A DNA stretch of 64,000 bases from Candidatus Amesbacteria bacterium GW2011_GWC2_45_19 (GCA_001001555.1 LCKS01000001.1:82066-146065); one strand, 5' to 3'; shown: positions 5,003-43,805, counted from the first letter of the stretch. Translations and numbers: made by a program. Notes: generated by a model from the sequence alone, not told the origin.

Positions 5003-5015
5003 TATACTGGAAAGC

Positions 5016-7274: not shown

Positions 7275-8733
7275 ATGAAAATCAACGCTAAAACGATAAT
7301 AATTGGACTTTCAATATTACTTCTGGCAACTACCCTTCGTTTTTGGAATCTCAATTCATTGCCCATTTTTGCGGATGAAGCCATTTATGTGCGCTGGTCC
7401 CAGGTCATGCGCGCCGAATCCTCCTTACGTTTCTTGCCTCTCTCGGACGGCAAACAGCCTCTATTCATGTGGCTCACCATTCCTTTTTTGCGCATTGGCT
7501 GGCCTGGGCACAGTCATAGGTATCGGCCTAGCTTCCTACTTTCTATTTTCTAATATCAGGTTATCAATACTCACTACCCTGCTGGCCGCTGTCCTGCCAT
7601 ACCTGGTTTTCTTCGACCGGATGGCCCTGGCAGATAGTTTATTGGCTATGTTTTTAGTTTGGACATTTAATTTTTCTTATTTGTCTTTTATTCACCGGCG
7701 GTTAGACTTAGCCATGTTTGCCGGTTTCGCTCTGGGATTTGCCTGGCTGACTAAATCTCCCGCCATCTTCGCTTTCTTTCTCCTCCCTCTCAATTTTCTT
7801 TTTATACCTAAATATTCAGCCAAAAATATTCTAATTTCTAGTTTCTATTTTCTGGTTTCTGTCGCCATTGCCTTCGGCATGTATAATATTTTGCGTTTGG
7901 GCCCGGAGTTCCATCAGATTGCCTTGCGTAATGCAGACTATGTTTTTCCGCTGGCCGAAATTTTGCGTCATCTGCTGGATCCGCTCCTGCCCCATCTTAA
8001 AGATTCTTTTCTCTTTTTTGCCTACTTTCTCACTCCGCTAGGGCTGCTGGCCGCTATTACCGGCATTCTGGCCGGAGGCCGGTCTCGTTGGCGGACTCGT
8101 CTGGTCTTGGCCGCTTGGTGGCTAGGGCCGGTGCTGGTTCAATCCGCCATCGCCAGAGCCTTCACTGCCCGTTATTTATTGTTCACCGTTCCCTTTGCCG
8201 CGATTTTGATTGGCCACGCTTTGGAACATATTGGTCAGCGTACCCAAAAGCACTTTCTATCAATGGCTGCCGCCGGTCTGATTATCCTTCCGGCTTTGGC
8301 CATGGATTATTTGGCTGTTGCCCGCCCTGAATCTTTACCCCTACCCCGGATCGAACGGTCTGGCTATTTGGAAGACTGGACAGCCGGTTACGGTCTGCGG
8401 GACGTAGCCCAACGATTGCGCCAGTACGCCGCTGCGGGTCCGGTTTTGGTCGGCAGCGAAGGCTTTTTTGGCACCCCATTTAACGCTTTGCAACTATATT
8501 TAAACGATGTTTCCAACGTCCGTGTCATTGGCGTTGGTGTCTGGATAGACTCCGTCCATGAAAAACTTAAGAATTCCTTAGCTGATAACCAGGTGTTTTT
8601 AGTTGTTAATTCCACCCGCCTGCACGCCGACCCGGATCAAATAGGGCTAAAACTCATCGTCAGTTACCCCAAAGCTTACCGTCCCGACGGCACCCGCGAG
8701 TATCTGCTATTTTTCCAAGTTTTATCTAAATGA
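7275..8733 (+). pseudogene. GT-C (PMT_2-like) glycosyltransferase interrupted by a +1 frameshift in a T6 tract (7484..7489)
   Basis: Frame 0 gives the genuine N-terminus (ADEAIYVRW...KQPLFMWLTIPFL) and stops at 7553. The +1 frame continues with genuine TM-rich sequence (CALAGLGTVIG...) to 8733. Removing one T restores a single 485-aa ORF. Confidence 0.55.
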
Positions 8734-10388
8734 AAAAAGACCTGTTATTGCTTGTGTTGCTGGTGTTGCCTGCTTTTGCCCCGCTATTGCAGCGGGGCTA
8801 CTTCTCCATGCACGACGATATGCAATCTATCCGCCAGATGAAAATGGATCAATGCCTGGCCGACTTGCAATTTCCCTGCCGCTGGAGCTTGGATTTAGGC
8901 TATGGCTACGGATACCCGCTTTTCAATTATTACCCGCCCCTGCCGTATCTTCTCGGTCAGCCTTTCCGCTGGTTAGGCTTTCAGTACATTGACGTCGTCA
9001 AAATAGTCGGGATTTTGGGATTTGTGACCGCCACCTCATTCATGTACTTATTGGGTAAAGAGTTTTGGGGCCGTTTGGGCGGGCTGATTGCGGCCGCGTT
9101 TTACACATATGCTCCATATCACTCCGTAGATTTTTACGTCCGGGGAGCCATGAATGAATTTTGGGCTCTGGCTCTTTTCCCGGCCATCTTCCTCACCACC
9201 TACAAACTCATCTCTACCTCCCAAAAAAAGTGGATTCCCTGGGTGGCTCTTTCAGTTGCCGGCCTCATGCTTTCCCACAACCCCATCCTTATGATTTTTG
9301 CACCGGTTTTGGTTATTTGGTGTCTTTTCTGGATGTTTAAATTTAGGTCAATTAGATTAATTAGGTCAATTAGAAATTTATTCGTCTCCGCTCTCTGGGC
9401 CCTGGGCCTGGCCGCCTTCTTTACCCTGCCGGTTTTGTTTGAAACCAAGTTTGTTTCAGTCTGGACACTGACTGCCGGCTATTTCAACTACCTGGCCCAC
9501 TTTTTGGATTTAAACCAGATATTTTTGCGTATTAATTGGGGCTACGGGGAATCGGTTTACGGCCGGGGAGATACCATGAGTTTTGCCCTGGGCTACCTGC
9601 ACTGGATCATTCCCACTCTTATTTTAATTCTCCTACCGTTCTCCCAAAAACTTAAAAACTTTTCAGCTTTAATTTTGACTGTTGCATTTTTAGTTTTGAG
9701 TTCTTTATTTATGTCTCACTTCAAGGCCACTCCTATCTGGCAAGCATTTCCGCCTTTGGAATTCCTACAATTTCCTTGGCGCTTCCTGACCCTGGCTATC
9801 TTCGCCGCCTCTTTTCTCTCCGGTGCCATCGCTCAAATTTTCCCTAAAAAAATCTTAATCATTTTAATCAGCTTAGTTATCTTAATTAACGGCAATTACT
9901 TCCGTCCCCGTCAGTGGTACCCGGACACGACCGACGCTAAAAAATTCTCTGGCAAATCGTGGCAGTTACTCATTACTTCCGGAATTTTTGACTATCTGCC
10001 CATCTGGGCTCCGCAACCCCCAGCTGATCCGGCCTTAGAGGACATAAAATTTATCAGCGGCGATGGTATCTACTCTACTCTAATTAAAAAAACCAACCGC
10101 CAAGAATTTTTAATCACGATCCAGACGCCCACTGCCGTGGCCGAATTACAGACCTATTACTTCCCGGGATGGAAAATTTGGGTCGATGACAAGCAAGTCA
10201 AAATTGATCCCTCCCGCGACAAAGTCCTGGGCCGGATGCAAATCGATCTTACTCCCGGCAAACATCAAGTCCTCGCCCGCTTCACCGCCACCCCCGTCAG
10301 AACTATCGGCAACACTTTGTCTCTTATAGCTTGGGTGGCTTTAGTTTGCCATTGGTGGAGTCGAAGACCATTTGTCCGCGGTCGTTAG
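8730..10388 (+). CDS. Large polytopic membrane protein, family B (putative GT-C-like glycosyltransferase/polymerase); paralog of 24584..26089
   Basis: 552 aa, >10 TM; shared motifs FPCRW..D.GYGYP.FN.Y, YAPY..VD.YVRGA.NE, C-terminal TP(I/V)RTIGN + TM; contains an 18-nt in-frame tandem duplication at 9343..9378. Confidence 0.45.
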   Translation: MKKDLLLLVLLVLPAFAPLLQRGYFSMHDDMQSIRQMKMDQCLADLQFPCRWSLDLGYGYGYPLFNYYPPLPYLLGQPFRWLGFQYIDVVKIVGILGFVTATSFMYLLGKEFWGRLGGLIAAAFYTYAPYHSVDFYVRGAMNEFWALALFPAIFLTTYKLISTSQKKWIPWVALSVAGLMLSHNPILMIFAPVLVIWCLFWMFKFRSIRLIRSIRNLFVSALWALGLAAFFTLPVLFETKFVSVWTLTAGYFNYLAHFLDLNQIFLRINWGYGESVYGRGDTMSFALGYLHWIIPTLILILLPFSQKLKNFSALILTVAFLVLSSLFMSHFKATPIWQAFPPLEFLQFPWRFLTLAIFAASFLSGAIAQIFPKKILIILISLVILINGNYFRPRQWYPDTTDAKKFSGKSWQLLITSGIFDYLPIWAPQPPADPALEDIKFISGDGIYSTLIKKTNRQEFLITIQTPTAVAELQTYYFPGWKIWVDDKQVKIDPSRDKVLGRMQIDLTPGKHQVLARFTATPVRTIGNTLSLIAWVALVCHWWSRRPFVRGR

Positions 10389-10602: not shown

Positions 10603-10611
10603 TTCCTTGAA

Positions 10612-11239: not shown

Positions 11240-11278
11240 CTATAATGTAAAATGACTTCATGGCGGAAGAAGTCACGC
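11240..11278 (+). repeat. Right copy of 39-nt direct repeat (native promoter/start of wzx)
   Basis: cTATAATGTAAAATGACTTCATGGCGGAAGAAGTCACGC. Confidence 0.7.
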
Positions 11279-12720
11279 TGGGGGATGTAGATTTGACCAC
11301 AGTCAAAGCCAGAACCGTTTCGGGCGTAGTCACGCTTATCAGCCGCTCATTCTTGCTCCAATTCGTAGCCACCGGCGGCTTTTTGGCCCTGTCTATTTTT
11401 TTGGGCCGTCCGGAAATTGGCCTGTTTATCGCCGTTAACGACCTGGTTTCCATCTTAGGCTATTTTTCCGACATCGGCCTGGCCGCATCCTTGATTCAAA
11501 AAAAGGACCAAGTAACCATCACCGACCTGCGTACCACCTTCACCATCCAGCAAATTATAGTATTAATTCTCATTTCTCTATCTCTATCTCTATCTCCGTG
11601 GCTGTTTAATTTCTACCACATTGGCAATGGAGGAACCTGGCTGTTTTATAGCTTATTGGCAGCTTTTTTCCTGGCTTCCCTGAAAACTATCCCTTCGGTT
11701 ATTTTGGAGCGCAAACTGCAATTTAAAGAGCTGGCGGCCGTCGAGGTGGTAGAGACCGTCATCTTCTATAGTATTGCGGTTCTTTTGGCTTGGCGGGGCG
11801 GGGGAGTCATGTCATATGCCTGGGCGGTCGTCTTCCGGGGCCTAATCGGAACTGTTATGATTTACTGGCTATCTCCCTGGAAAATCGGTCTGGCTGTCTC
11901 CATATCTTCTCTCAAATCTCTGCTCTCATTTGGATTGCCATATCAAATAAATTCTTTAGTGGCCACCGTCAAGGACCGGTTTATAAATATTATTCTCTGG
12001 AAAATTATCGGCGCCGACGGGGTGGGCATTATTGGCTGGGCTCAAACCTGGTCCCAAAAACCCCTGCGCTTTATTATGGATAATGTCACTCGGGTCACCT
12101 TCCCCAGCTTTGCTCGTCTCCAAGACAATCCCGCAGAATTGCGTCAAGCAATTGAGCGCACCCTGTTTTTTATCACCCTGATTACTTTCCCGATTCTGGC
12201 CGGCCTGGCCGTCTTTGCTCCCCAATTAATCACGCTCATTCCCCGTTATTCCAAATGGCAGCCGGCTCTTCTGGCTCTGGTTTTGTATTGTTTTAATTCT
12301 GCCTGGGCCAGCGTCTCTACTCCCCTGACCAATACCCTTAACGCCTTGGGCAAAGTCAAAACTAATACTTACTTAATGCTTATGTGGACCGCCCTCACCT
12401 GGATACTTGTCCCATACTTTGCCTACCGCCTAGGCTACAACGGAGTGGCCTATGCTACAGCTTTGATTGCCCTTTCGTCAGTCGTTCCCATTATTATCGT
12501 CAAGCGCCTAACCCACTTTAGTTTAATAAACGGCGTTCTCAAACCTTTAACTGCCACTTTGGTAATGATTGCCGGAGCTCTTCTGCTCACTCCGTTGCCC
12601 TTGATAATTAACATGATTATCTCCCTGTTACTATTTACCATTACTGTTTACTTATTGGTCGGTCCGGATCTATTTGTGCAAACATGGAAAAAAATAATCA
12701 CCGCCCGCCTTGGTCGCTAA
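11260..12720 (+). CDS. wzx: Wzx-type oligosaccharide flippase (MOP/polysaccharide biosynthesis protein family)
   Basis: 486 aa, ~14 TM, N-terminal layout typical of O-unit flippases; internal (TCTCTA)x3 microsatellite at about 11575..11595. Confidence 0.6.
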   Translation: MAEEVTLGDVDLTTVKARTVSGVVTLISRSFLLQFVATGGFLALSIFLGRPEIGLFIAVNDLVSILGYFSDIGLAASLIQKKDQVTITDLRTTFTIQQIIVLILISLSLSLSPWLFNFYHIGNGGTWLFYSLLAAFFLASLKTIPSVILERKLQFKELAAVEVVETVIFYSIAVLLAWRGGGVMSYAWAVVFRGLIGTVMIYWLSPWKIGLAVSISSLKSLLSFGLPYQINSLVATVKDRFINIILWKIIGADGVGIIGWAQTWSQKPLRFIMDNVTRVTFPSFARLQDNPAELRQAIERTLFFITLITFPILAGLAVFAPQLITLIPRYSKWQPALLALVLYCFNSAWASVSTPLTNTLNALGKVKTNTYLMLMWTALTWILVPYFAYRLGYNGVAYATALIALSSVVPIIIVKRLTHFSLINGVLKPLTATLVMIAGALLLTPLPLIINMIISLLLFTITVYLLVGPDLFVQTWKKIITARLGR

Positions 12721-20529: not shown

Positions 20530-21393
20530 CTAAACTTCTTCTACTAATTCCGGAAGGACCTGGATATAGGCTCTAACTAAATCCCACTTTCCCCACACGG
20601 CCCAGGCGGGAATTCTAATAGCACAGCCAAAAAGTAAAACCAACTTTAGCAGAAACCGTTCAGGAGCCGAATTGTATTTTTTAAACCAATACAGATAACC
20701 ACGCATTTCTCCCAAAAAAGAATTGGCGTAGGTTTTAACGCTTTGGCGAGCCAGATGCACACATTGGGCGCCCGGAAAATAATAGGTATCAAAGCCGGAT
20801 TTTTGGGTGCGGTACATCCATTCGGTTTCCTCTCCATACATATAAAAATTCTCGTCAACCCCCCCGGTTTTTTCGTAGACTCCACGCTTGAGCATCACAA
20901 AAGCCCCCATCACCCAGTCGACTTTTTGTGTGGTAGTAAATCTGGATAGGTCGCGGACGTGGACCGAATCGACGAATTTACGGATAACTGGGAAGTTGTC
21001 AACAAAGATTTGAAACTGAAGAATCCTGCGCAGAGTGGGGAAATATCCCCAGGAAGGTTGTATCGACAGGTCTTCGTTGAGTAGTTGGCAACCTAAAACA
21101 TCGTAATCTAGGGCATAACACTTGGCTAGAGTATCCGGATAGACAAATGCGTCACTGTTAAGAAGCAAAATTTTATCGCCTTTAGCTACTCTCATACCTT
21201 TGTTGTTATTGGCTCCAAATCCCAGGCGGGTGGGATTATTAATTATTTTCACTTTCGGAAAAACCAGTTTATCTTCCGGGGTGTTATTAATTAAAATAGT
21301 CTCAAATTCTATTTCCCGGGATCTATACAAATGCTGCAAACATTTGAACGTGACATCCGGGGTTCCGTGATTTATGATAATTACAGATAGCAT
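20530..21393 (-). CDS. GT2 glycosyltransferase
   Basis: MLSVIIINHGTPDVT...ILINNTPED...NSDAFV; start codon overlaps the divergent GT-C start (CATG). Confidence 0.7.
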   Translation of the reverse strand: MLSVIIINHGTPDVTFKCLQHLYRSREIEFETILINNTPEDKLVFPKVKIINNPTRLGFGANNNKGMRVAKGDKILLLNSDAFVYPDTLAKCYALDYDVLGCQLLNEDLSIQPSWGYFPTLRRILQFQIFVDNFPVIRKFVDSVHVRDLSRFTTTQKVDWVMGAFVMLKRGVYEKTGGVDENFYMYGEETEWMYRTQKSGFDTYYFPGAQCVHLARQSVKTYANSFLGEMRGYLYWFKKYNSAPERFLLKLVLLFGCAIRIPAWAVWGKWDLVRAYIQVLPELVEEV

Positions 21394-22987
21394 GAGCTGG
21401 ATTCTTAGCCTTATTTTAGCACTTAGCCTTATTTTACGCGTTGGGTTGTTGAATCAGGTTCCTCCGGAACTATTTGGTGATGAAGTCGACGTAGGTTACC
21501 AAGCCAGATCGCTCTTGCAAACCGGTCGGGATTTGTACGGCCAGGTATTGCCCACCTATATTCATTCTCTGGCCGAGTGGCGGGCCCCGCTTCTGATGTA
21601 CGCCACCGTTCCCACCATAGCTGTCTTTGACAACTCCGTCCGGGGCGTCCGCCTGCCGGAAGTCATTTTTGGTACTCTTGGCCCCCTGATTCTATTTCTT
21701 TTGGTTTACCAAATTTCGAAATCTTGGAAGTTTGGAGTTTTGGCGTTTTTGGTTATGGCCACCATGCCCTGGCATATTTATTATTCCCGGGCCGCCTTCG
21801 AAGTGGTTCTCATGCTCAACCTGGTCATGTTGGGCACTCTCCTTTTTCTTAAAAAACGTTTTGCACTTTGCACTTTGCACTTTGCACTAGCTATGTACAC
21901 TTACAGTACCGCCGTCCTATTTGTCCCGCTTTGGCTGGTTGTTCTGCACTTTCTTACTAAAACAAAACCCAAAGTTGTTTCCCTGTTATTATTTACGATT
22001 ATTGTTGCTCCATTGATATATCACATCGTCGCCGGCCCGGCCCGCGGCCGGTTTGGAGGTTTAAGTATTTTTAACCAGCAGGAACTGGTGAGAAATATTA
22101 ATGATTTGCGCCAGGAAGACAATAATCCCATCGCGCCCCTTTGGCACAACAAACCGGAAACTTACGCTTCGGCCATTATGGCCAATTACTTAAGAGCCTT
22201 TTCTACCGACTTTTTGTTTATCCGGGGCGATCCCATCTACCGCCACAGTATCCAGATAGTGGGTCAACTGTTAGCTATCTCTTCCCCGTTTGTGCTTCTG
22301 GGTTTGTGGTCCTTAGGCTCAAGGCGGCAATGGCTCTGGTTGTCCTGGCTGATTTTAGCTCCAATTCCGGCTGCCTTAACTGCCGACGGGGGATATCATG
22401 CTACCCGCCTCTTTCTCATGATCCCTCCTCTGGCCGTGGCCACCGGCACCGGTTTACTTTTAGTTCTGCAAAAATTACCCAGGATTTTAAATATCCTGTT
22501 AGTATTACTGTTTACTGTTTACATCGCGTGGCTGGGTCATTATTACGTGGCCCATTACGCCAAATCTTCCTGGCGCTGGTGGCACGTCGGGTTTGAGCAA
22601 GCGATGGTTCAATTAAACAAACTATCTCCTCAATACTCGCGGGTATTTATTAATAATACTTACGAACCGTCTTTAATTAGATTCTTGTTTTGGACCAATT
22701 ATTCTCCTGCCAAGTTTCACCGCCAATTCACTGTCGACCAGCCGCAGGATAACATCGTTCCCAATTACAACGGCTTTTCTCTGGACGGCAAATATTTCTT
22801 TGGCAATTTTAATAAATCAAACTGGACAGAATTTTTACTCCCCAACAGTCTGTATCTTATTTCCCAGCGCGACAATGTCGCCGGGGATTGGGACTGGCGC
22901 CGCACTCCGCCAGATAATATCCGCGTTCTCTTTACCAGCACCAATGCCTATGACCAGCCCGTCCTATATTTGATAACCAAGATATAA
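21392..22987 (+). CDS. GT-C family membrane glycosyltransferase (PMT_2/ArnT-like), paralog 1 of tandem array
   Basis: LFGDEVDVGYQARSLLQTGRD first-loop DE motif, 12+ TM; contains (TTTGCAC)x4. Confidence 0.65.
   Translation: MSWILSLILALSLILRVGLLNQVPPELFGDEVDVGYQARSLLQTGRDLYGQVLPTYIHSLAEWRAPLLMYATVPTIAVFDNSVRGVRLPEVIFGTLGPLILFLLVYQISKSWKFGVLAFLVMATMPWHIYYSRAAFEVVLMLNLVMLGTLLFLKKRFALCTLHFALAMYTYSTAVLFVPLWLVVLHFLTKTKPKVVSLLLFTIIVAPLIYHIVAGPARGRFGGLSIFNQQELVRNINDLRQEDNNPIAPLWHNKPETYASAIMANYLRAFSTDFLFIRGDPIYRHSIQIVGQLLAISSPFVLLGLWSLGSRRQWLWLSWLILAPIPAALTADGGYHATRLFLMIPPLAVATGTGLLLVLQKLPRILNILLVLLFTVYIAWLGHYYVAHYAKSSWRWWHVGFEQAMVQLNKLSPQYSRVFINNTYEPSLIRFLFWTNYSPAKFHRQFTVDQPQDNIVPNYNGFSLDGKYFFGNFNKSNWTEFLLPNSLYLISQRDNVAGDWDWRRTPPDNIRVLFTSTNAYDQPVLYLITKI
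21860..21887 (+). repeat. Heptanucleotide tandem repeat (TTTGCAC)x4 inside GT-C coding sequence
   Basis: Read directly; encodes FALCTLHFAL. Confidence 0.8.
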
Positions 22988-22988
22988 C

Positions 22989-24587
22989 ATGCGCCGTTTA
23001 TTAATTCTGGCCCTGATTATCGGATCGCTCACGCGTCTCTTGTGGATCTCCCGCTATCCGGCCGGATTCACTGCCGACGAAGCAGCTTTTGGCTACAATG
23101 CCTACTCGCTCTTGCTTACCGGCCGTGACGAATGGGGGACTCCCTGGTGGCAATTGTTTTTTACCAACCTCCGTTCCTTTGGGGATTATAAACTTCCCCT
23201 TTACGCTTTCCTGGCCGTTCCCTCCGTTAAAATATTTGGTCTGACTGAATTTGCCGTCCGCCTGCCCAACGCCATTTTTGGCATTCTGGCTATCACAAGC
23301 ATTTACTTACTGGCAAAAAAGTTATACCTCACCTCTCACCCCTCTCCTTTAAAAGGAGAGGGGAACGCAAGGGGTGAGGTACTGGGAGTAACTTCTGCAT
23401 TACTGCTAGCCATCAGCCCCTGGCATATTCAACTGTCCCGGGGTGCCTTTGAAGCCAATCTGGCCACCTTTCTCTTGCCGATGGGGATCTATCTGCTTCT
23501 GGAAAGCCATCCTCTCCTTTCCACCCTCTTTTTTATCGCCTCGGCCTACTCCTATCATTCCGCCAGACTAATATTGCCGTTCATCCTCGTTTTTCTTTTT
23601 ATATACTTCCGGGATAAATTCAAACCCCTATTAATTATTCCTCTTCTGATCTCGCTTTGGGGGCTGACTTCCCCCCGGGTGGCTGACGTAAGCATTTTCA
23701 GCCCTACCGATAACTGGTTAGGAGTAGCCACCCGCCGTTTTGAAGCCCGGGCCCTGGGTCTTCCGGACCAAATAGCCCGCGTTTTTTCCAACAAACTGGT
23801 TTATTCACTTTCTACATTCACCCAAAATTATATTTCCTATTTCTCTCCCAACTTTCTGTTCACCTCCGGGGCCGGCGAATCCTTTTACGGCATGATGCCG
23901 GGCAGGGGAGTGCTTTATTTGATTGAACTGCCAATTTTGATCATGGCCCTAATTTATTTCATCCGTCGGCCATCAAAACTATATTTACTATTACTTTTAC
24001 TATTACTAATCTCCCCTATTCCCGCCGCTTTGGCCAAAGGTCCCGGAGCCGCCGCCAACCGCGCGGCAATCATGCTTCCCTGGCTGGTAATTTTTCTCTC
24101 TACCATTATTGTCCGCCTTCCGCGCAAATGGCTGGCTCTTTTAGCCGGCGCTTACGTTATTAGCTTCGTCTTTTTCGTCGAGGATTATCTATATCATTCC
24201 TCTTATATTACCGCCCCTTCCATGTCTTACGGATGGCGGGAATTGGTGCCGCGCCTCAAGCCTTTTTCCGACCGCTTTTCCGATGTGCGCTTCAGCCGCT
24301 CTCTTTCCGAACCGCATATTTTTGTGGCTTTTTATTCCCGTTTCGATCCCCGGGAGTATCAAAAAGCCGCGGCTTCCTGGCCCCGCCATATCAAGTTTTT
24401 GGACCAGTTTGATGGTTATTATTTGGGTAAATACCGTTTCGGCGACATTCATCCCCAAGATCCGGTAATCACTCCTACACTTTTCATTGGTAAACCGGAG
24501 GATTTTCCCGCCGGTTTTCCCCAATATTTCCAGATTGATTATCCTTCTTCCCGGCCGGCTATCATAGTCGCCCAAAAACTTCCATGA
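22989..24587 (+). CDS. GT-C family membrane glycosyltransferase, paralog 2; carries in-frame palindromic mini-element insertion
   Basis: FTADEAAFGYNAYSLLLTGRDEWG; extra 17 aa (SHPSPLKGEGNARGEVL) relative to paralogs, encoded by nested inverted repeats. Confidence 0.65.
   Translation: MRRLLILALIIGSLTRLLWISRYPAGFTADEAAFGYNAYSLLLTGRDEWGTPWWQLFFTNLRSFGDYKLPLYAFLAVPSVKIFGLTEFAVRLPNAIFGILAITSIYLLAKKLYLTSHPSPLKGEGNARGEVLGVTSALLLAISPWHIQLSRGAFEANLATFLLPMGIYLLLESHPLLSTLFFIASAYSYHSARLILPFILVFLFIYFRDKFKPLLIIPLLISLWGLTSPRVADVSIFSPTDNWLGVATRRFEARALGLPDQIARVFSNKLVYSLSTFTQNYISYFSPNFLFTSGAGESFYGMMPGRGVLYLIELPILIMALIYFIRRPSKLYLLLLLLLLISPIPAALAKGPGAAANRAAIMLPWLVIFLSTIIVRLPRKWLALLAGAYVISFVFFVEDYLYHSSYITAPSMSYGWRELVPRLKPFSDRFSDVRFSRSLSEPHIFVAFYSRFDPREYQKAAASWPRHIKFLDQFDGYYLGKYRFGDIHPQDPVITPTLFIGKPEDFPAGFPQYFQIDYPSSRPAIIVAQKLP
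23326..23380 (+). repeat. Palindromic mini-element (MITE/REPIN-like) inside GT-C coding sequence
   Basis: Inner perfect palindrome CCCCTCTCCTTT-A-AAAGGAGAGGGG (23339..23363); outer arms CTCACCCCT / AGGGGTGAG; preceded by 7-mer periodic CCTCACC TCTCACC CCTCTCC. Confidence 0.65.
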
Positions 24588-26089
24588 AAAAATATATTTT
24601 TATCCTCTTGGTTCTTTTAATTCCCGCATTTTCTCTCATGCTCCGCCCGGGCATTTTTACCATGCATGACTTTCACCCTTTCCGGCAGTATGAATTTTCC
24701 CAATGCGTCGCCGCTAAAACTTTCCCCTGCCGCTGGGCCCCTGATGCCGGCATGGGTTACGGTGAACCGGTATTTAATTTTTACGGCCAATTTCCCTACT
24801 GGGTCGGGCAAATTTTTCACTCTCTGGGGTTACAAATCATTGATTCCGTCAAAGCCAATTTTATTCTGACCATCATAGTTTCGGCTGTCGGCATGTATTT
24901 GCTGGGCAAAAAATATTGGGGAAACTTGGGCGGGATGATCGCGGCCCTGTTTTACATTTATGCGCCTTACCGGGCGGTAGACGTCTGGGTCCGCGGCTCT
25001 CTCAACGAGGCTTACGCTCTGGCTCTATTTCCTTTTATATTTCTCTCGCTGGACAACTTTCTGGACGACCATCAGCCCCGGCACTTATGGTGGCTGGTTT
25101 TCTTTGCCTCCGCACTACTCATAACCCACAACTTATCCGCACTCATGATTGCTCCGTTTCTGGCCATTTGGGTTTTTAAGAAATTCCCCGTGCCCTTCTC
25201 CCGCCTGATTGCCGCGGCAGCCGCCGTTTTTCTCTTGAGTGCTTTTTATTTACTGCCGGTTATTTTTGAAAGCCGGTTAGTCACCCTGAATTTGACTACC
25301 AGCTCCTATTACAATTATCAGCTCCACTGGACTACTCTCAAACAACTCTTTATTTCCCGTTTCTGGGGTTACGGCGGCTCCACCTGGGGCCCCAATGATA
25401 CTATGAGTTTTTCTGTGGGCTACCTGCAATGGCTCGTCCCTCTATTTCTTCTTCTTCGCAAAAAGTCCCTCGCGTTTATCGCTTTTGGCTTCTTTGCCGT
25501 TTTTCTCACTCACGGCAAGTCGGAATTTATCTGGAAACTTTTTCCGCCCCTGGCTTATATCCAATTCCCTTGGCGTTTCCTGGCCGTCTCTACTTTCTTT
25601 TTGTCTCTTTCCTCCGGCGCCATCTCTCAAGTTTTCTCCAAAAAAATTCTAAGTCTCTTAATCATCTTAGTTATCTTAATTAACTTTTCTTTCTTCCGTC
25701 CGGATATTTGGCGCAGCATTGGAGATAAAGAACAATTCTCGGGAGCCTTGTGGGACGAACAGCGCTCTTCCGCTCTTCAGGATTTTTGGCCTAAGACGGC
25801 CAAACAACTTCCCACCGGTTTTGCCCCACGCCTCCCCCAGGTTTTACTTACTACTGACACTTATCAAAAAATCCAATACCCAATTGTTTATTTCCCCGGC
25901 TGGAAATCCCAAGTCGAGCTGTTTCCATCGGGCCCATTGGGCCTCATCACTGCCCGGGTTCCCCTGGGCACTCAAATTAACCTGAAATTTACCAACACCC
26001 CAATCAGAACCATCGGCAACATTACTAGTTTGGTCGCTTTGCTATGTCTCATCTTAAGTGGCTATTACTTATTACCGCGGCGGGTCTAA
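24584..26089 (+). CDS. Large polytopic membrane protein, family B (paralog of 8730..10388)
   Basis: FPCRWAPDAGMGYGEPVFNFY...YAPYRAVDVWVRGSLNE...TNTPIRTIGN. Confidence 0.45.
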   Translation: MKKYIFILLVLLIPAFSLMLRPGIFTMHDFHPFRQYEFSQCVAAKTFPCRWAPDAGMGYGEPVFNFYGQFPYWVGQIFHSLGLQIIDSVKANFILTIIVSAVGMYLLGKKYWGNLGGMIAALFYIYAPYRAVDVWVRGSLNEAYALALFPFIFLSLDNFLDDHQPRHLWWLVFFASALLITHNLSALMIAPFLAIWVFKKFPVPFSRLIAAAAAVFLLSAFYLLPVIFESRLVTLNLTTSSYYNYQLHWTTLKQLFISRFWGYGGSTWGPNDTMSFSVGYLQWLVPLFLLLRKKSLAFIAFGFFAVFLTHGKSEFIWKLFPPLAYIQFPWRFLAVSTFFLSLSSGAISQVFSKKILSLLIILVILINFSFFRPDIWRSIGDKEQFSGALWDEQRSSALQDFWPKTAKQLPTGFAPRLPQVLLTTDTYQKIQYPIVYFPGWKSQVELFPSGPLGLITARVPLGTQINLKFTNTPIRTIGNITSLVALLCLILSGYYLLPRRV

Positions 26090-27549
26090 TTTTACGGCTG
26101 GCTGCCATTAATTTTTTGCCGCCCAGTCTCAACTGGGACGAAGTGTCACTGGGCTACAACGCTTACTCGCTTCTTAAAACCGGCCGGGATGAATGGGGAA
26201 CAGTTCTGCCCACTATTTTTCGCGCTTATGGCGATTACAAATTGCCTGTTTACGTTTATCTGGCCACAGTCATGCCCTTTTTTGTGCGCCTGCCCTCAAT
26301 CATTCTGGGCACCCTGCTCATTGTAATCACCTATCTATTAGGCCGCCGGCTATCTTCTCCGTTCGTGGGCTTGACTTCGGCTTTGCTGGTAGCCATCTCT
26401 CCCTGGACCTGGTGGATGTCCCGCATCGCATTGGAAGCCAATGTGGGGGTCTTGCTCATTGTCGTAGGTGTCTACTGTCTACTAATCCGTAAACTTAACT
26501 TGGGAATTCTCTTTTTGGGACTGTCAGTTTGGGCTTACAACTCCGCCCGTGTTTTCTCCCCCCTATTTTTATCCGCTTATTTTTTGATTTATCGTCCCAA
26601 ATTATCTATTGTCTCCTATTCTCTAATTTCTATTTTCCTCATCCCTATGATTATTCAGCTCTTGTCTCCGGTTGGTCAAGCCCGCCTCAACTGGCTGACT
26701 CTTTTGGATTCTGGAGCTATTTCCCGCATAGAGAACCTGCAAACCACCCGCCCCGGCGGCCGTCTGCTGTACAACAAGGCCACTTATTTTACCTACCGTT
26801 TCGTTCAAAATTACATCAGTTACTTTTCTCCCAATTTCTTATTTCTCAAGGGAGGAAACCATTATCAATTCAGCGTCCAAAACTTCGGCCTTCTTTATCT
26901 AATCTGTTTGCCATTTTTTTACATTGGGATTTTGAATTTATTTGGATCTTCGAATTTTAAATTTAGAATTTTACTTCTCATATGGCTCTTGTTGGCCCCA
27001 ATTGCTGGTAGTTTGACCCGTGACGCGCCTCATGTCTTACGCGCTGTCCCCCTGCTTCCTTTACCCATGCTGCTTATCTCCCTCGGCCTGGACCGTTTCG
27101 GCCGTAACGTTAAAGCCTTTTTCTTCACGGGTCTCCTAATATCTATTATCTACTATCTAGTATCCGCGAATAGTTACCGTAGTAACTATTCGCAATCTTG
27201 GCAATATGGTTATTCCCAGGTAGTTCAATTTATTAAACCCCGGTACTCCCAATACGACCAAATCGTTTTTACCAAAAAGTATGGGGAGCCTCACGAATTC
27301 GTGGCTTATTTCTGGCCCTGGGATCCCGCTGACTTTGCCAAAAATAAATCCTGGGACTACCACGCCAATTGGTATTGGGTAAACGCTTTGGATAAGATAA
27401 AGTTCGTAAACGATTGGGAGATTAAAAACATGGCCTTTAAACCGAACACTTTGGTTATTTCCAGTCCCGAAAGTGAAATTGCCGGCCGCGAGATAACCAG
27501 AATTAATTTTCTCGACGGCCAACCCGCCTTTATCATTTATGAGAAATAG
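26044..27549 (+). CDS. GT-C family membrane glycosyltransferase, paralog 3
   Basis: LNWDEVSLGYNAYSLLKTGRDEWG; shares exact 22-nt string CTATTCTCTAATTTCTATTTTC (26616..26637) with 2816..2837. Confidence 0.65.
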   Translation: MSHLKWLLLITAAGLILRLAAINFLPPSLNWDEVSLGYNAYSLLKTGRDEWGTVLPTIFRAYGDYKLPVYVYLATVMPFFVRLPSIILGTLLIVITYLLGRRLSSPFVGLTSALLVAISPWTWWMSRIALEANVGVLLIVVGVYCLLIRKLNLGILFLGLSVWAYNSARVFSPLFLSAYFLIYRPKLSIVSYSLISIFLIPMIIQLLSPVGQARLNWLTLLDSGAISRIENLQTTRPGGRLLYNKATYFTYRFVQNYISYFSPNFLFLKGGNHYQFSVQNFGLLYLICLPFFYIGILNLFGSSNFKFRILLLIWLLLAPIAGSLTRDAPHVLRAVPLLPLPMLLISLGLDRFGRNVKAFFFTGLLISIIYYLVSANSYRSNYSQSWQYGYSQVVQFIKPRYSQYDQIVFTKKYGEPHEFVAYFWPWDPADFAKNKSWDYHANWYWVNALDKIKFVNDWEIKNMAFKPNTLVISSPESEIAGREITRINFLDGQPAFIIYEK

Positions 27550-29101
27550 AATTATTCTCTTATTCATAGTCCTACTTGGGCTGGGACTTAGACTGTTTCG
27601 TCTAGATTCCCGCCCGTTAGGCTTTACCTGGGACGAAGCCGCTCTTGGTTACAACGCTTATTCGCTTCTTAAAACTGGCCGGGACGAGTATAGCAAAGTC
27701 CTACCCGTCGTTCTCAAATCCTTTGGCGACTACAAACCCGGCGCCTATGCCTACCTGGCTGTTCCTCCTATCGCCACTTTCGGCTTGAACGAGTTCGCCA
27801 CCCGTCTGCCCTCAGCCATCTTTGGAACGTTGCTTATTGTTATTGTTTACCTGCTCACCCGGAATATGTTTGCGGCCGGACTTTTGGCCATTAATCCCTG
27901 GTCGCTTTATTTTTCCCGCGGGGCTTGGGAGGCCAATGTCGCTCTTACCCTCACCGTTCTGGGCGTCCTTTTGTTTATCCGCCGCCGTTATCTGGTTTCG
28001 GCTCTCTTTTTTGGTTTGACCTTTCTTACTTACCAGGGAGCCAAAATGTTTACTCCGCTTCTTATTTTGTCCCTTCTTCTAATCTACCGTCCCAATATTA
28101 AATCATTAATTAAACCCCTGATCTTCCTGATCTTCCTGATCTTCCCCATCCTCCTGGGTCTCACCACCCAATCCGGCCGCCTGAAGGTCTTTAGCGTCTT
28201 CAGTTATTCGCGTTCTCCTTCCGTCGTCGGGGAAATAGAACGTCAGGATAATAACAATCCTTTTCTTTTCACTCTCTTCCATGCAGAAATTATTGACCAG
28301 GGCCGGGGAGTACTGCAAAGATATCTCAACCATTTTTCTCCTTATTATCTGTTCTTCGCCGGAGACTGGCAAAACCTGCGCCACTCCATTCCTTACTACG
28401 GCTACTTCCACCTTCCGGAAATAGTTACTGTCGTTCTAGGTCTTATTTTCCTAATCTCTAATTTCCAATCTCCAATTTCTAAAGTTCTTCTCACTTGGCT
28501 GCTGCTGGCCCCTTTGCCCTCCGCCCTTTCCCGCGACCTAGTCTCCGGCGTCCGCTCCCTGCCCCTGCTGGTACCCCTGGTCGTGCTTAGCGGCATTGGT
28601 TTGTCCCAACTTTTTCGCCATCGTCTTCTCTTATACTCTTACGCTCTGATACTTTTATTTTTCTTCGTCTATTATCTTGATTTATTCTATATCCACGCCC
28701 CCAATTTCACTGCCGTTGACTTCCTTTATCCCTATCGCCCCGCGCTTCAGACAATCAAACTTCTTGTCTCAAATTATAAAAAGATTGTTATCACTTCCCA
28801 ACTTGGTCAACCCTACATATTTACTTTATTTTATTTGCAAATCGACCCCCGCATATATCAATCTCAAGCCCGTTTGCGCGAAAATCCCCAAGGGGACGTA
28901 GGCGAAGTAGAAAAATTTGATATATTCGAATTCCGTCCCATTTTCTGGCCGGCTGATAGGGGATTGTCATCAACTCTATTTGTGGGTGGCCAGTACGAGC
29001 TTCCCGAATCAGATTTACAGACCACTCCCAATCTGGAAAGAGTTTCCGATATCACTTACCCCGGCGGGGCCCCCGCCTTAAAAATTGTTGGCCTCAAATG
29101 A
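27539..29101 (+). CDS. GT-C family membrane glycosyltransferase, paralog 4
   Basis: FTWDEAALGYNAYSLLKTGRDEY; contains (CCTGATCTT)x3. Confidence 0.65.
   Translation: MRNRIILLFIVLLGLGLRLFRLDSRPLGFTWDEAALGYNAYSLLKTGRDEYSKVLPVVLKSFGDYKPGAYAYLAVPPIATFGLNEFATRLPSAIFGTLLIVIVYLLTRNMFAAGLLAINPWSLYFSRGAWEANVALTLTVLGVLLFIRRRYLVSALFFGLTFLTYQGAKMFTPLLILSLLLIYRPNIKSLIKPLIFLIFLIFPILLGLTTQSGRLKVFSVFSYSRSPSVVGEIERQDNNNPFLFTLFHAEIIDQGRGVLQRYLNHFSPYYLFFAGDWQNLRHSIPYYGYFHLPEIVTVVLGLIFLISNFQSPISKVLLTWLLLAPLPSALSRDLVSGVRSLPLLVPLVVLSGIGLSQLFRHRLLLYSYALILLFFFVYYLDLFYIHAPNFTAVDFLYPYRPALQTIKLLVSNYKKIVITSQLGQPYIFTLFYLQIDPRIYQSQARLRENPQGDVGEVEKFDIFEFRPIFWPADRGLSSTLFVGGQYELPESDLQTTPNLERVSDITYPGGAPALKIVGLK
28117..28143 (+). 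repeat. 9-nt tandem repeat (CCTGATCTT)x3 in GT-C paralog 4
   Basis: Read directly; encodes LIFLIFLIF in a TM segment. Confidence 0.8.
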
Positions 29102-30675
29102 AAAAATTTCTCCTCATTTTCATTCTTATCCTGGCATCAGTCCTGCGGCTCTACAAACTGTCTTCATACCCGGCTGGTCTAAACGCCGATGAAGCCGCGT
29201 TAGGTTACAATGCTTATTCTTTGATGCTGACCGGCCGTGATGAGCACGGCCATCCCTGGCCGGTGAATCTGGAATCGTTCGGCGATTTCAAGCCTGCCGG
29301 CTACGCGTATTTGCTCATTCCTTTCATCAAAGTTTTCGGCCTGACCGAACTGGCCGTCCGCCTCCCCTCGGCTATCTTCGGCATCCTAGCCGTTCTCTTC
29401 ATCTATTTACTGGTCAAAGAGCTGAGCACTGAGGGCTGCGCGCTGATAGCTGCGATATTGCTAGCAATATCGCCGTGGCATTTGCACTTCTCCCGCGGCG
29501 GCTGGGAAGTCAACGTGGCCACCACTCTGATTCTCATCGGCGTCTGGCTCTTCCTCAAACGTCGCTTTGCCCTTTGCACTTTGCCCTTTGCACTTTCGAT
29601 GTACACCTACCAATCAGCCCGCGTCATCGTCCCTTTTCTGGGATTAGGACTAATATTACTCAATCGCCCAAAAAAGATTCTGTCTAGCGGCTTATTACTG
29701 TTACTGTTATTATCTCCTCTGGCCCTCTCGGTACTTCGTTCAGACGCCGCCTCCCGTTTATCCGGCGTGGGGCTGCTGGCCGATGAAGGGCCTCTTAACC
29801 GGGCCAAAGAACTGCGCGGCCAACATGCAAACTGGAGTTCTCCTCTGTCCCGGATTCTCCACAACCGGCCCGTTCTCTACACCATCCAATTCTTGAAAAA
29901 TTACACAGATCATTTTTCCGGCGACTTTCTTTTCGTCAACGGCGACGTCATCCCCCGGAACCGGGTTCCCGAAACCGGCCTGCTGTATTTCACTGATTTC
30001 ATCTTTCTGGCTCTGGGCGTGGTCTATCTTCTCCGCACTACTCACTACTCACTACACACCCGGGTTATCTGGCTCTGGTTGCTCGTCGCCCCTCTTGCTG
30101 CGGCTCTGACGTTCCAAATCCCCCACGCCCTGCGGGCCCACACCTTGGTCATTCCCCTCACGATCTTGATCGCGGCCGGCGGATACTCTTTAAAGGAGAC
30201 TCCTTTTAAGTTTAAAAGGAGTCTCCTTTTTATAGTGGCTGTGATTTATTTGTGGCAATTTGCCAGATATCTGCACCAGTATTACATCCACTATCCCCAA
30301 ACTTATCCTTACGCTTGGGAGTACGGTTTCAAAGAACTGGTGGCTTACGTGGGATCGGTCCAAGACAAATATGAAAAGATTTTAGTCACCGATAAATATG
30401 ACCAGCCATATATTATCTTTCTCTTTTATTCCAAGTATCCGCCTCAATTATTCCAAAATAATCACCAGCTTACTTTCAGGGATAAGTTTAATTTCTCTAC
30501 CGTCCGCGACTACGGCAAGTTCCATTTTGCCGCCACTCCCTGGTCAACCGTCCGCGATATCCATTCCTCGCTTATTGTGGCCGCCCCGGAAGATATTCCC
30601 GAAGTAGGTGTTAATATAGTTAAAACCATTAATTTTCCCAATGGCCAGCCCGCATTTAAAATAATCAGCAACTAA
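29098..30675 (+). CDS. GT-C family membrane glycosyltransferase, paralog 5
   Basis: LNADEAALGYNAYSLMLTGRDEHG; closest to paralog 1 (RRFALCTLPFALSMYTY). Confidence 0.65.
   Translation: MKKFLLIFILILASVLRLYKLSSYPAGLNADEAALGYNAYSLMLTGRDEHGHPWPVNLESFGDFKPAGYAYLLIPFIKVFGLTELAVRLPSAIFGILAVLFIYLLVKELSTEGCALIAAILLAISPWHLHFSRGGWEVNVATTLILIGVWLFLKRRFALCTLPFALSMYTYQSARVIVPFLGLGLILLNRPKKILSSGLLLLLLLSPLALSVLRSDAASRLSGVGLLADEGPLNRAKELRGQHANWSSPLSRILHNRPVLYTIQFLKNYTDHFSGDFLFVNGDVIPRNRVPETGLLYFTDFIFLALGVVYLLRTTHYSLHTRVIWLWLLVAPLAAALTFQIPHALRAHTLVIPLTILIAAGGYSLKETPFKFKRSLLFIVAVIYLWQFARYLHQYYIHYPQTYPYAWEYGFKELVAYVGSVQDKYEKILVTDKYDQPYIIFLFYSKYPPQLFQNNHQLTFRDKFNFSTVRDYGKFHFAATPWSTVRDIHSSLIVAAPEDIPEVGVNIVKTINFPNGQPAFKIISN
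29565..29596 (+). repeat. Degenerate heptamer array (CTTTGC[A/C])x4 in GT-C paralog 5, homologous position to (TTTGCAC)x4 in paralog 1
   Basis: gCTTTGCCCTTTGCACTTTGCCCTTTGCACTTTcg. Confidence 0.7.
30192..30229 (+). repeat. Perfect 18-bp inverted repeat with 2-nt spacer (REPIN-like doublet) inside GT-C paralog 5
   Basis: AAAGGAGACTCCTTTTAA-GT-TTAAAAGGAGTCTCCTTT; core GACTCCTTTTAAG resembles REP core CACTCCTTTAAGG. Confidence 0.65.
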
Positions 30676-33089: not shown

Positions 33090-34202
33090 ATGAGTTTTTC
33101 CCGCCTGTTTAAGATTTTTGTCCTCTGGCAAGCCGCAATCATTATCGTGACTATGGCCGCCCAATATTCTTCACTGCCCCTGCGGGAAACGTTTTTGGGC
33201 AGTGGCACTCAAGCGTATGTGGAAAAGCCCTGGGCTTACTCCCGGGAAAATTTTGACGGCATGCATTACACGTATATCGCCAGCCGCGGCTATGGCTATT
33301 CCCAGCAGGCTTTCTTCCCTCTTTATCCGGCTCTCATGCGCCGCCTGATGACCCTGCCAATTCTTAACAACGCCGTCACTGCCGGCGTTTTAATTTCTGT
33401 AGTGGCTTTTCTGGCCGGCCTGTATCTGTTCATCAAATTAATTCTTTTGGATTATTCCTCATCTGTTGCTAAGTGGACTATCCTGGCCCTGCTGTTTTTT
33501 CCCGCCAGTTTCTTCTTTACTTCCGTATACACCGAAGGCCTATTCTTTTTCCTGACTATTGCCGCTTTTTACTCCGCCCGCACCCGCCACTGGTTGCTGG
33601 CGGGTATATTCGGGGCCCTGGCCAGCTACACCCGTTTCATCGGCATCTTTCTCTTTCCGGCTCTTTTAATCGAATGGTGGCAGCAGGGCCGCCGCTTCAA
33701 GCACTTCTTGCCTCTTCTTTTGATTCCGCTCGGCTTAATAATTTACATGAATTATTTGAATAAGACAACGGGGGACCCCTTAGCCTTTTTCCACGTCCAG
33801 GTGAATTTTGCCCAACTGCGAAGCGAGAAACTCATTCTGCTTTATCAAGTTTTCTGGCGTTACCTCAAAATGCTTCTGACCGTCAACCGTTCCGACCCGC
33901 TGTATCTGACCATCGTTCTCGAATTTGTGACCGGAGTGGTATTTCTAGTAACCACTGTCTACTCGTTTATCAAACACCGCCTGTCCTACGCCGTCTTTAA
34001 CTTCTTGACCTATATTATCCCCACCTTGACCGGCACCTTTACCTCTTTGCCCCGCTACGTTCTGCTTTGTTTCCCCTCGTTCCTGCTAATTGGCGAGTTA
34101 TTATCCCGCTCGCCCCTAGCCCGCAAAATTATCCTCGGCATCTTCGCTGTCGCCTTTATTATTTTTCTCTCCTTCTTCGCCCGGGGATATTGGGTGGCAT
34201 AA
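33090..34202 (+). CDS. Polytopic membrane protein, PIG-V-like (GT76-like) mannosyltransferase family; paralog of 421..1467
   Basis: FDGMHYTYIASRGYGYSQQAFFPLYPAL motif; 370 aa, ~9 TM. Confidence 0.45.
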   Translation: MSFSRLFKIFVLWQAAIIIVTMAAQYSSLPLRETFLGSGTQAYVEKPWAYSRENFDGMHYTYIASRGYGYSQQAFFPLYPALMRRLMTLPILNNAVTAGVLISVVAFLAGLYLFIKLILLDYSSSVAKWTILALLFFPASFFFTSVYTEGLFFFLTIAAFYSARTRHWLLAGIFGALASYTRFIGIFLFPALLIEWWQQGRRFKHFLPLLLIPLGLIIYMNYLNKTTGDPLAFFHVQVNFAQLRSEKLILLYQVFWRYLKMLLTVNRSDPLYLTIVLEFVTGVVFLVTTVYSFIKHRLSYAVFNFLTYIIPTLTGTFTSLPRYVLLCFPSFLLIGELLSRSPLARKIILGIFAVAFIIFLSFFARGYWVA

Positions 34203-34943
34203 ATGAACACTATTAAATTGTCGGTAGTTATGCCGGTCTACCGGCAGGAAAAGAACGTGGTCCGATATCTGCGGGCTCTGGGTAAAGTCTTGGCGGGATT
34301 GAATGTTGTTTACGAAATGATTTGCGTTGTAGACGGCCAAGTGGACAATACTTATGAGAATGCCAAAAAGGCCAAAATCCCAAAACTTAAAGTCTTCACT
34401 TATCCCAAAAATCAGGGGAAAGGCAACGCGGTCCGGTTTGGCATGTCCAGAGCCAGGGGGGAAGTAATCGGTTTTGTAGACGGAGGATTTGACCTTAAAT
34501 ATTCATCCATTCCTTTGGCCTTGGAGCATATGAAGTGGTACAACGCTGATATTATGATCGGATCCAAACGTCATCCCGCTTCCAAAGTCACCTATCCATG
34601 GCAGAGACGGATTTTGTCTTGGGGATATCAAATGGGCGTAAGGCTACTTTTTGGAATTAATGTTAGAGATTCACAGGTTGGTATTAAATTCTTCAAAAGA
34701 AAAGTTGTTAAAGAAATAATGCCAAAATTATTGATAAAAGCTTTTGCTTTTGATATCGAAATGTTGGCAGTAGCCAACCGGATGGGCTTTTCCAGAATTT
34801 ACGAATTTCCCATAGAATTAAAATTGGAATTTGGCACATCTTCAATTGCCTCAATCGGCTTTTTCAAGACTAGCTGGAATATGCTGTGGGACACTCTGGC
34901 TGTCTTTTACCGCCTGAAAATCCGGTGCCACTACGATAAATGA
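34203..34943 (+). CDS. GT2 polyprenyl-phosphate sugar synthase (DPM1/GtrB-like)
   Basis: LSVVMPVYRQEKNV...CVVDGQVDNT...FVDGG...; GC falls from ~48% to ~33% inside this gene. Confidence 0.65.
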   Translation: MNTIKLSVVMPVYRQEKNVVRYLRALGKVLAGLNVVYEMICVVDGQVDNTYENAKKAKIPKLKVFTYPKNQGKGNAVRFGMSRARGEVIGFVDGGFDLKYSSIPLALEHMKWYNADIMIGSKRHPASKVTYPWQRRILSWGYQMGVRLLFGINVRDSQVGIKFFKRKVVKEIMPKLLIKAFAFDIEMLAVANRMGFSRIYEFPIELKLEFGTSSIASIGFFKTSWNMLWDTLAVFYRLKIRCHYDK

Positions 34944-43790: not shown

Positions 43791-43805
43791 ACTTCTATAC
43801 AGCTC

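Follow-up and report, generated by a model that had tools for sequence, protein, structure and literature searches.

A 64,000-nucleotide stretch of the genome of Candidatus Amesbacteria bacterium GW2011_GWC2_45_19 (GCA_001001555.1, LCKS01000001.1:82066-146065; hereafter the window, meaning this whole stretch) carries at 21374-30675 an array of six genes for predicted membrane glycosyltransferases of the GT-C fold. Five of them, A1 to A5, are paralogs of one family (family A), and the sixth, B2, which lies between A2 and A3, represents a second family (family B). The source, a very small groundwater bacterium that has not been cultured, belongs to the Microgenomates within the Candidate Phyla Radiation (CPR). 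Our reading, to which we give a probability of roughly 60%, is that the array is an old conserved operon of six GT-C enzymes that perform distinct, non-redundant transfers from polyprenyl-phosphate sugars. The likely role of the operon is the extracytoplasmic assembly or modification of a glycan of the cell surface. This reading builds on the established fold, loop motif, paralogy, conserved gene order and gene context of the array.

All six genes lie on the plus strand. A1 (21374..22987) encodes 537 amino acids from ATG 21374 or 531 from ATG 21392, and is followed by A2 (22989..24587, 532 amino acids), B2 (24584..26089, 501), A3 (26044..27549, 501), A4 (27539..29101, 520) and A5 (29098..30675, 525). 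The open reading frame listing confirms the five intact A genes of the original prediction, and the start of A1 at 21392 is favoured by a promoter-like site at 21350-21378, which fits this ATG better than ATG 21374. A2 starts 1 nucleotide past the A1 stop codon, the start of B2 overlaps the A2 stop by 4 nucleotides, the start of A3 overlaps the end of B2 by 46 nucleotides and A4 overlaps A3 by 11 nucleotides. Since every gene of the array overlaps or directly adjoins the next, and terminator-like sites are not commoner than in shuffled sequence, the array looks like one operon. Apart from the site upstream of 21392, the promoter and terminator scan was uninformative. The proteins had been predicted to be interleaved with a different kind of polytopic protein; because B2 is also predicted to have the GT-C fold, the array is better described as six consecutive GT-C genes. 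The A5 protein matches UX99_C0005G0023 of Candidatus Amesbacteria bacterium GW2011_GWB1_47_26 at 100% identity, and B2 corresponds to UX99_C0005G0020 of the same record.

The order of these genes is conserved well beyond this genome. A motif-based scan of one genome per species returned more than 545 encoding stretches, and the 80 best of these were examined. Where named, all 80 belong to Microgenomates, namely Ames-, Collier-, Woese-, Shapiro-, Davies- and Gottesmanbacteria, and the best window matches of successive genes in these loci run A1, A2, (B), A3, A4, A5. The 360 A-family members found lie in 77 loci, with five or six per locus as the commonest count, and orthologs of A1, the position-1 gene, are present in 64 loci. 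When genes were labelled from a neighbour-joining tree, 20 loci showed the order A1-A2-A3-A4-A5 on one strand, and at least 20 loci of Ames-, Collier-, Woese- and Shapirobacteria have the arrangement A1-A2-(B)-A3-A4-A5. The very large clades of that tree were exactly recovered in 0-9 of 50 bootstraps, a poor result. A test restricted to the 20 collinear loci gave bootstrap support of 75-98% (200 replicates) for the monophyly of each positional class. Median identity is 39-48% between genes in the same position versus 27-33% across positions. Orthologs of A5 elsewhere are 57-86% identical to it, much closer than any paralog in the window (26-35%). In one relative, locus L001, whose A5 is 66% identical, the same order extends to the flanks: a minus-strand GT2 gene, A1, A2, B, A3, A4, A5, GT2, GT4, a PIG-V-like gene and GT2.

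These comparisons overturn the tandem expansion that had been proposed, and the phylogeny of the copies contradicts recent duplication. Sequence comparison instead indicates that A1-A5 are ancient, distinct orthologous groups in an old conserved operon rather than the product of lineage-specific amplification, and cautions against tallying them as a simple 'expansion'. Recent tandem multiplication of a single GT-C gene within this lineage, for instance to vary a surface antigen, would account for genes that are adjacent, on one strand and of similar lengths, and for the very large size of the family in metagenomes: a profile search of 1.8 billion representatives of 50%-identity clusters returned 5723 clusters at E<=1e-30. 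It is nevertheless contradicted by the low identity of the paralogs, by the closer same-position orthologs in Collier-, Woese- and Shapirobacteria and by the identical order and flanking genes of L001, which together leave it hardly any credit. Of the top-scoring genomes, many bear the title 'uncultured Gammaproteobacteria' or 'Pseudomonadales'; their gene content and similarity are those of Microgenomates, and the labels look wrong. In the closest relatives of the window (L003, L004, L007, L008 and L052), A1 and A2 are separated by two genes that the window lacks, one for a membrane protein like that encoded at 17703 in the window (protein F) and the other for an additional A4-like GT-C protein on the opposite strand.

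The five A proteins share 26-35% mutual identity in pairwise BLASTP comparisons at E 1e-32 to 1e-85 (A1 to A5, E 3e-57), far beyond chance, and their alignment contains 52 invariant columns. Invariant in all five (A1 numbering) are D36, E37, G41, Y42, A44, S46, L47, T50, G51, R52 and D53, which form the loop pattern DE..GY..TGRD. The longer N-terminal loop motif described earlier is real, with two exceptions: A1 has L in place of the trailing E, and A5 has M in place of the second L of SLL. All five paralogs and 32 aligned homologs keep the D-E pair unchanged, and a loose form of the motif, D[DE]xxx[GAS][YFW], occurs in 328 of the 360 family members of related loci. In the model of A5, the pair is located at the N-terminus of helix 30-45, past the first transmembrane helix (TM1, residues 2-18). 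An acidic residue is thus conserved in the first extracytoplasmic loop after TM1, as expected of GT-C enzymes, the outward facing of this loop being predicted by the positive-inside rule. With the Asp-Glu pair kept at the start of the first external helix, all five A proteins are probably active.

Sequence profiles place family A poorly. Against the gathering threshold of 26.1 bits for Pfam PMT_2 (PF13231), A5 passes with 37.8 bits, A2 (24.5 bits) and A4 (22.6 bits) fall below, and A1 and A3 have no match; A3, which has no Pfam match at all, was recognised by the motif and BLASTP. A5 is also the only paralog that passes Pfam PMT (PF02366), with 27.2 bits, and one paralog has a weak EpsG match (15.7 bits). 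NCBIfam gave only weak, far sub-threshold matches of family A to Agl23 and archaeal STT3. A profile of the five A sequences searched against all PDB chains found nothing at E<=1, and one of 32 sequences found STT3 alone, at E 0.045. Because sequence-based placement failed, structure prediction was needed. The model of A5, predicted from the 32-sequence alignment, has a mean predicted local distance difference test score (pLDDT) of 85.7 and a predicted template modelling score (pTM) of 0.87. It superimposes on solved GT-C enzymes, with Foldseek matches in the PDB to AglB, STT3, PglB, ArnT, ALG9/12, Emb and Pmt4; further structural matches of family A include EmbA/B/C, AftA, AftB, AftD and PimE. 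The model thus firmly supports the A proteins as membrane glycosyltransferases of the GT-C fold. The original prediction had accordingly named the right fold, and the proteins were not assigned to a non-glycosyltransferase family lacking the DE loop.

Its narrower label, PMT_2/ArnT-like, goes further than these results, with four of five paralogs failing PMT_2 and membership of GT39 or GT83 not established. The A proteins are not clearly closer to any one CAZy family (GT39, GT83, GT22 or GT66), so that the names 'glycosyltransferase family 39' and 'ArnT-like' given to orthologs by NCBI and JGI hold at the superfamily level only. A DE motif in loop 1 is the classical signature of PMT (GT39) enzymes, and the invariant D-E pair of family A is its probable equivalent. 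A Pfam PMT match combined with a sequence relationship to characterised PMTs was not found. Likewise, none of the A or B proteins has an NCBIfam ArnT match, the family A profiles match no ArnT structure, and nothing annotated ArnA, ArnB or ArnD adjoins the array, though ArnC-like GT2 genes are present in the window.

Tandem GT-C paralogs are known to heterodimerise, and structures of EmbA-EmbB and Pmt1-Pmt2 are among the matches. The paralogs of the window could likewise be obligate hetero-oligomers, with fewer reactions than genes and with some subunits mainly structural, and the tight translational coupling of the array, with its overlapping stop and start codons, would suit stoichiometric co-production. 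This lesser rival has to accommodate the full catalytic loop in all five proteins, with no apparent pseudoenzyme, and the loss or duplication of single members in other lineages, which is harder to square with a fixed complex; it is regarded as improbable.

Family B has two members in the window, B2 and B1 (8730..10388, plus strand, 552 amino acids), which are 41% identical (BLASTP, E 1e-115). The duplication that had been proposed is therefore real, but the description of these proteins as giants is not, as 552 and 501 amino acids make them no larger than the A proteins. B2 reaches 37.2 bits against Pfam PTPS_related (PF10131; gathering threshold 26.4 bits), B1 scores 19.2 bits and remains below the threshold, and some B homologs have matches to YfhO (PF09586) or PMT_2. 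The AlphaFold2 (AF2) model of B2 has a pLDDT of 87.2, with Foldseek PDB matches to STT3, AftD, ArnT, AftA and ALG12. The B proteins are thus membrane proteins as predicted, and more than merely polytopic, since the model and its matches indicate the GT-C fold; on this modelling, family B is a second GT-C family. D29 of the first loop, within a conserved M-H-D, is invariant across 31 B homologs. B is missing from many arrays outside Amesbacteria.

The helices of the A5 model and the positive-inside rule predict 11 transmembrane helices for the A proteins, with the N-terminus inside and the C-terminal domain outside. Among the paralogs, mean pairwise identity is highest in the external loops EL1 (0.44), EL2 (0.54) and EL3 (0.47) and in TM2 (0.52) and TM9 (0.51). 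It is lowest in EL4 (0.24), TM7 (0.20), TM11 (0.17), the cytoplasmic loops (0.19) and the C-terminal domain (0.21). Divergence had been said to concentrate in extracytoplasmic loops and transmembrane segments, which describes EL4, the C-terminal domain and the late transmembrane helices but not the catalytic loops EL1-EL3, the most conserved parts. Conserved EL1-EL3 and TM2 combined with a diverged EL4 and C-terminal domain would fit a shared donor-binding and catalytic module with diverged acceptor-facing parts. Because the donor and catalytic part is shared, EL4 and the C-terminal domain have diverged and the positional classes are conserved across lineages, the five A enzymes would most likely make five different, non-redundant transfers on a single glycan or glycoprotein of the cell surface, each serving its own position, linkage or acceptor. 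A more specific version, in which A1-A5 work as a five-step line for glycan assembly outside the cytoplasm that much of Microgenomates shares, each enzyme taking a defined sugar from a polyprenyl-phosphate donor and adding it to a single envelope glycan or glycoprotein as it grows, is put forward tentatively, as a possibility somewhat short of even odds.

The same divergence of EL4 and the C-terminal domain would also suit varied protein acceptors. A1-A5 might be acceptor-specific protein O-glycosyltransferases, comparable to PMT1-7 or TMTC1-4 of eukaryotes, that attach an identical or similar sugar to a range of secreted and surface proteins, such as S-layer proteins or pili, instead of lengthening a single glycan. 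The scores of A5 above the Pfam PMT and PMT_2 thresholds, the DE motif in loop 1 and the inferred 11-helix topology with a large loop after TM7, which resembles PMT, all favour this serious rival. It is less easily reconciled with the lack of a sequence-profile match to solved PMTs, with the four of five paralogs below the PMT_2 threshold and with the surroundings of the array, where numerous GT2 and GT4 genes and a Wzx flippase make up a setting usual for polysaccharide assembly. On balance, the O-glycosyltransferase explanation seems rather unlikely, though it deserves to be taken seriously.

Genes that could supply a lipid-linked donor are present in the same window. C1 (1482..3638, plus strand) is a fusion of an ArnC/DPM1-like GT2 domain (Pfam GT2, 118 bits), whose best PDB matches are to ArnC (E 7e-18), with a GT-C domain (PMT_2, 38.5 bits). 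The gene after it, C2 (3578..5002, plus strand, likely start ATG 3635; PMT_2, 33.6 bits), encodes a GT-C paralog of the C-terminal domain of C1 (26% identity, BLASTP E 4e-26), in agreement with the distant two-member subfamily noted originally, and the C2 profile aligns with the A profile in hhalign at a probability of 98.2%. Three further plus-strand genes encode candidate polyprenyl-phosphate sugar synthases. These are a GtrB/DPM1-like GT2 at 4857..5753 (catalytic part from ~5013; PDB matches to GtrB sll0501 at E 1e-15, Dol-P-Man synthase (DPMS) and ArnC), a DPM1/ArnC-like GT2 at 5710..6516 (DPMS 5MLZ at E 4e-16, ArnC and GtrB) and a DPM1-like GT2 at 34203..34943 (Dol-P-Man synthase 5MLZ at E 2e-14, then GtrB). 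For the four GT2 domains (1482, 4857/5013, 5710 and 34203), the closest solved relatives are thus Dol-P-Man synthase (5MLZ), ArnC and GtrB at E 1e-14 to 1e-18, bearing out the four DPM1-like lipid-sugar synthases that had been proposed. A control GT2 (30675) has its best PDB sequence matches with GmaR and SunS and is not of the DPM1 type, and the NCBIfam matches of the donor GT2s agree in direction, though far below cutoffs. The fusion of a GT2 synthase to a GT-C domain in C1 argues for functional coupling of the two activities.

A candidate flippase for polyprenyl-phosphate sugars is a small membrane protein of the GtrA family (43767..44189, plus strand; PF04138, 69.8 bits). GT2 synthases, a GtrA-like gene and GT-C genes therefore lie within one 64 kb island, matching the published three-component scheme of lipid-linked donor synthase, flippase and GT-C transferase (PMC11127046). 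As the genes are not mutually adjacent, their functional pairing is putative. In the scheme proposed here, whose donor type, membrane topology, stepwise action and acceptor are inferred, cytoplasmic DPM1/ArnC/GtrB-like GT2 enzymes would load sugars onto polyprenyl phosphate, a flippase (the GtrA-like protein as candidate) would translocate these lipid-linked sugars to the external side of the membrane, and the GT-C enzymes would pass them to an acceptor beyond the cell membrane. Alternatively, the proteins may not be monophosphate-sugar transferases but polymerases, ligases or non-sugar transferases that use diphosphate-linked or other lipid donors, in keeping with STT3, AglB and PglB, users of diphosphate-linked oligosaccharides, among the best structural matches and with the weak EpsG match of one paralog. 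The four DPM1/ArnC/GtrB-type synthase genes, one of them fused to a related GT-C domain, point the other way, no WaaL/Wzy-type Pfam match was found, and the WaaL structure was matched at a Foldseek E of 0.3 only, making such a role very unlikely.

Several points weigh against the proposed operon of non-redundant polyprenyl-phosphate-sugar transferases. The sequence profiles of family A have no significant match to any solved GT-C enzyme, and the catalytic residues are assigned from where they lie in the model and from what is generally known of GT-C enzymes. The bootstrap test is partly circular, because its loci were picked by tree-derived labels; the best-hit order pattern and the comparison with L001 are independent of these labels. 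Arrays of Gottesman- and Daviesbacteria have other compositions, so the five classes do not hold everywhere. The GtrA-like gene, 13 kb away from the array in DNA of different GC content, may belong to another pathway. Finally, stepwise action on one glycan is deduced from gene order and divergence, which acceptor-specific isoenzymes would also fit.

Among known systems, the three-component ones (GtrA/GtrB with a serotype-specific GT-C, CsbB-GtcA-YfhO, and GT136 pentofuranose transfer) follow the logic set out in PMC11127046, and the window has all three parts. Those systems have one synthase and one GT-C and add a side-chain sugar to a finished polymer, whereas the window has five or six GT-C genes in fixed order in one operon, with the synthases and the GtrA-like gene elsewhere in the island. 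The mycobacterial sets (embC-embA-embB; AftA-D, PimE) are alike in having several GT-C paralogs, some in tandem, that act successively on one polymer, beyond the membrane, with a polyprenyl-monophosphate donor; several GT-C enzymes act on one mycobacterial arabinan (PMC11127046). The A proteins are only 10-14% identical to them and, at 501-537 amino acids with a C-terminal domain of ~120, have none of the large carbohydrate-binding domains found at the C-terminus of Emb and AftD, the mycobacterial enzymes having about 600-1400 amino acids. No DprE1/2, UbiA-type or phosphoribosyl-transferase genes were found among the window genes scanned. The mannosyl- and glucosyltransferases ALG3/9/12/6/8/10 of the endoplasmic reticulum (ER) lumen differ in being eukaryotic, unclustered in the genome and active on a diphosphate-linked N-glycan precursor. 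The match margin over AglB, STT3 and ArnT is too small for a specific ALG relationship.

With GT39 (PMT/PMT_2) and ArnT (GT83), the A proteins share the DE or Asp in the first external loop and the overall fold, and A5 passes both PMT and PMT_2. They differ in that four of five paralogs fail PMT_2, no NCBIfam ArnT model and, by profile, no solved PMT or ArnT sequence is matched, and there is no MIR domain and no arn operon. Family B, for its part, resembles YfhO/PTPS_related (PF09586/PF10131) through B2, through the PF09586 or PMT_2 matches of some homologs and through its predicted GT-C fold. It differs in that the B members are all uncharacterised, B1 does not reach the threshold and B is absent from many non-Amesbacteria arrays. 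No paper on this operon was found in the literature searched for glycosyltransferases or GT-C enzymes of CPR, Microgenomates, Patescibacteria or Amesbacteria, an absence that does not prove it undescribed. The fold and the pathway type are known, and what appears new is the conserved five-plus-one GT-C operon and its uncharacterised family.

CPR bacteria, whose genomes measure ~1 Mb, rely on other cells; to our knowledge, nothing is known of their surface chemistry. The retention of gene order across several Microgenomates lineages points to a conserved, probably important envelope glycan or glycoprotein. Family A comprises thousands of 50%-identity clusters without a characterised or solved member, labelled 'hypothetical' or, loosely, 'GT39' or 'ArnT-like'. 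If the assembly line is real, it would be a bacterial counterpart, outside Actinobacteria, of mycobacterial arabinan/mannan synthesis or of the ER-lumenal ALG pathway, and would define a signature surface polymer of ultra-small, probably host-attached bacteria. The five distinct orthologous groups are concrete targets for heterologous expression and for glycan analysis of enrichment cultures.

A further GT-C gene, P (7275..8733, plus strand), is disrupted. It had been predicted to be a frameshifted sixth copy of the array genes; it is indeed out of frame, its N-terminal 72 codons being in a different frame from the remainder, but it belongs to a separate subfamily. P has no BLASTP match to any A copy, its profile is nearer to B (hhalign E 6e-27, 391 columns) than to A (E 3e-12), and its first-loop motif reads ADE[AS]IY[VI]RW[AS]Q. 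Intact P orthologs are present in 80 related metagenome loci. Compared with these, the window copy lacks at the break 14-15 residues (LKxxxDPLLAGRxLS), a conserved Arg among them, and the gap in the DNA is 41 or 44 nucleotides, an out-of-frame deletion near ~7484. A slip in the T6 run at 7484-7489 was considered and ruled out by this ortholog alignment. P is a pseudogene or an assembly error. An IS200/Y1-type transposase-like gene (6488-7180, minus strand; PF01797, 50 bits) lies directly upstream of it.

On the left flank of the array, the divergent GT2 gene (20530..21393, minus strand; Pfam GT2) has a same-type counterpart in the same position in L001. Its 5' end overlaps that of A1 by 20 nucleotides (start 21374) or 2 nucleotides (start 21392), and the two also abut in L001, so that the promoters of both genes must sit within coding sequence. 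On the right flank, a GT2 gene translationally coupled to A5 (30675-31490, plus strand) and a GT4 gene (31472-32464, plus strand), both assigned by Pfam, are in the same order as in L001. A PIG-V-like (Mannosyl_trans2) polytopic protein of GT-C type (33090..34202, plus strand; PF04188, 35.9 bits) has a counterpart at the same relative position there. It is related (BLASTP E 6e-11) to a small PMT_2-like polytopic protein encoded at 421..1467 on the minus strand, whose own PMT_2 match is weak (23.8 bits, under the cutoff). Downstream of the array, the gene content of the window differs from that of L001.

Pfam scans indicate that the entire 64 kb window is devoted to glycan biosynthesis, with many GT2 and GT4 genes and with FkbM methyltransferases, epimerases, a nucleotidyltransferase and a DegT aminotransferase. 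A Wzx/MOP-type polysaccharide flippase is encoded at 11260..12720 (plus strand; PF13440, 162.8 bits). GC content steps at ~34 kb, from 0.46-0.49 over 1-34000 to 0.37-0.40 over 34000-64000; the name of the genome with the identical A5, GW2011_GWB1_47_26, implies about 47%. The low-GC half contains three GT4 genes, further GT2 genes, the FkbM methyltransferases, epimerases, nucleotidyltransferase and DegT aminotransferase, and the GtrA-like gene; it is perhaps a second glycan cluster, variable or acquired. A GT2 gene at 15057-15773 is seemingly truncated, and a different frame contains, up to ~15930, a GT2-like C-terminal continuation (YYTTRNRLLFGLRW), which suggests a second frameshifted gene of the island or an assembly error.

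Four further polytopic proteins without a Pfam match, at 12684-14249 (E), 48418-49962 (J, minus strand), 49946-51718 (K, minus strand) and 60750-62750 (L), have a GT-C-like layout of one N-terminal helix, a loop of 80-130 residues and many hydrophobic segments. Comparisons by hhalign of E, J, K, L and F with the A, B, P and C profiles were not significant, with weak exceptions for L against B (84% probability) and for F against the PIG-V-like family (85%), and these five proteins were not counted as GT-C enzymes. If the four at 12684, 48418, 49946 and 60750 are GT-C proteins, the window would hold ~16 GT-C genes. The sole sizeable gaps of the glycosyltransferase island (10588-11234 and 32503-33050) are occupied by two toxin-antitoxin pairs, a MazE-like antitoxin with a PIN toxin (10588-10857 and 10854-11234) and a BrnT-like toxin with a BrnA/CopG antitoxin (32503-32787 and 32784-33050).

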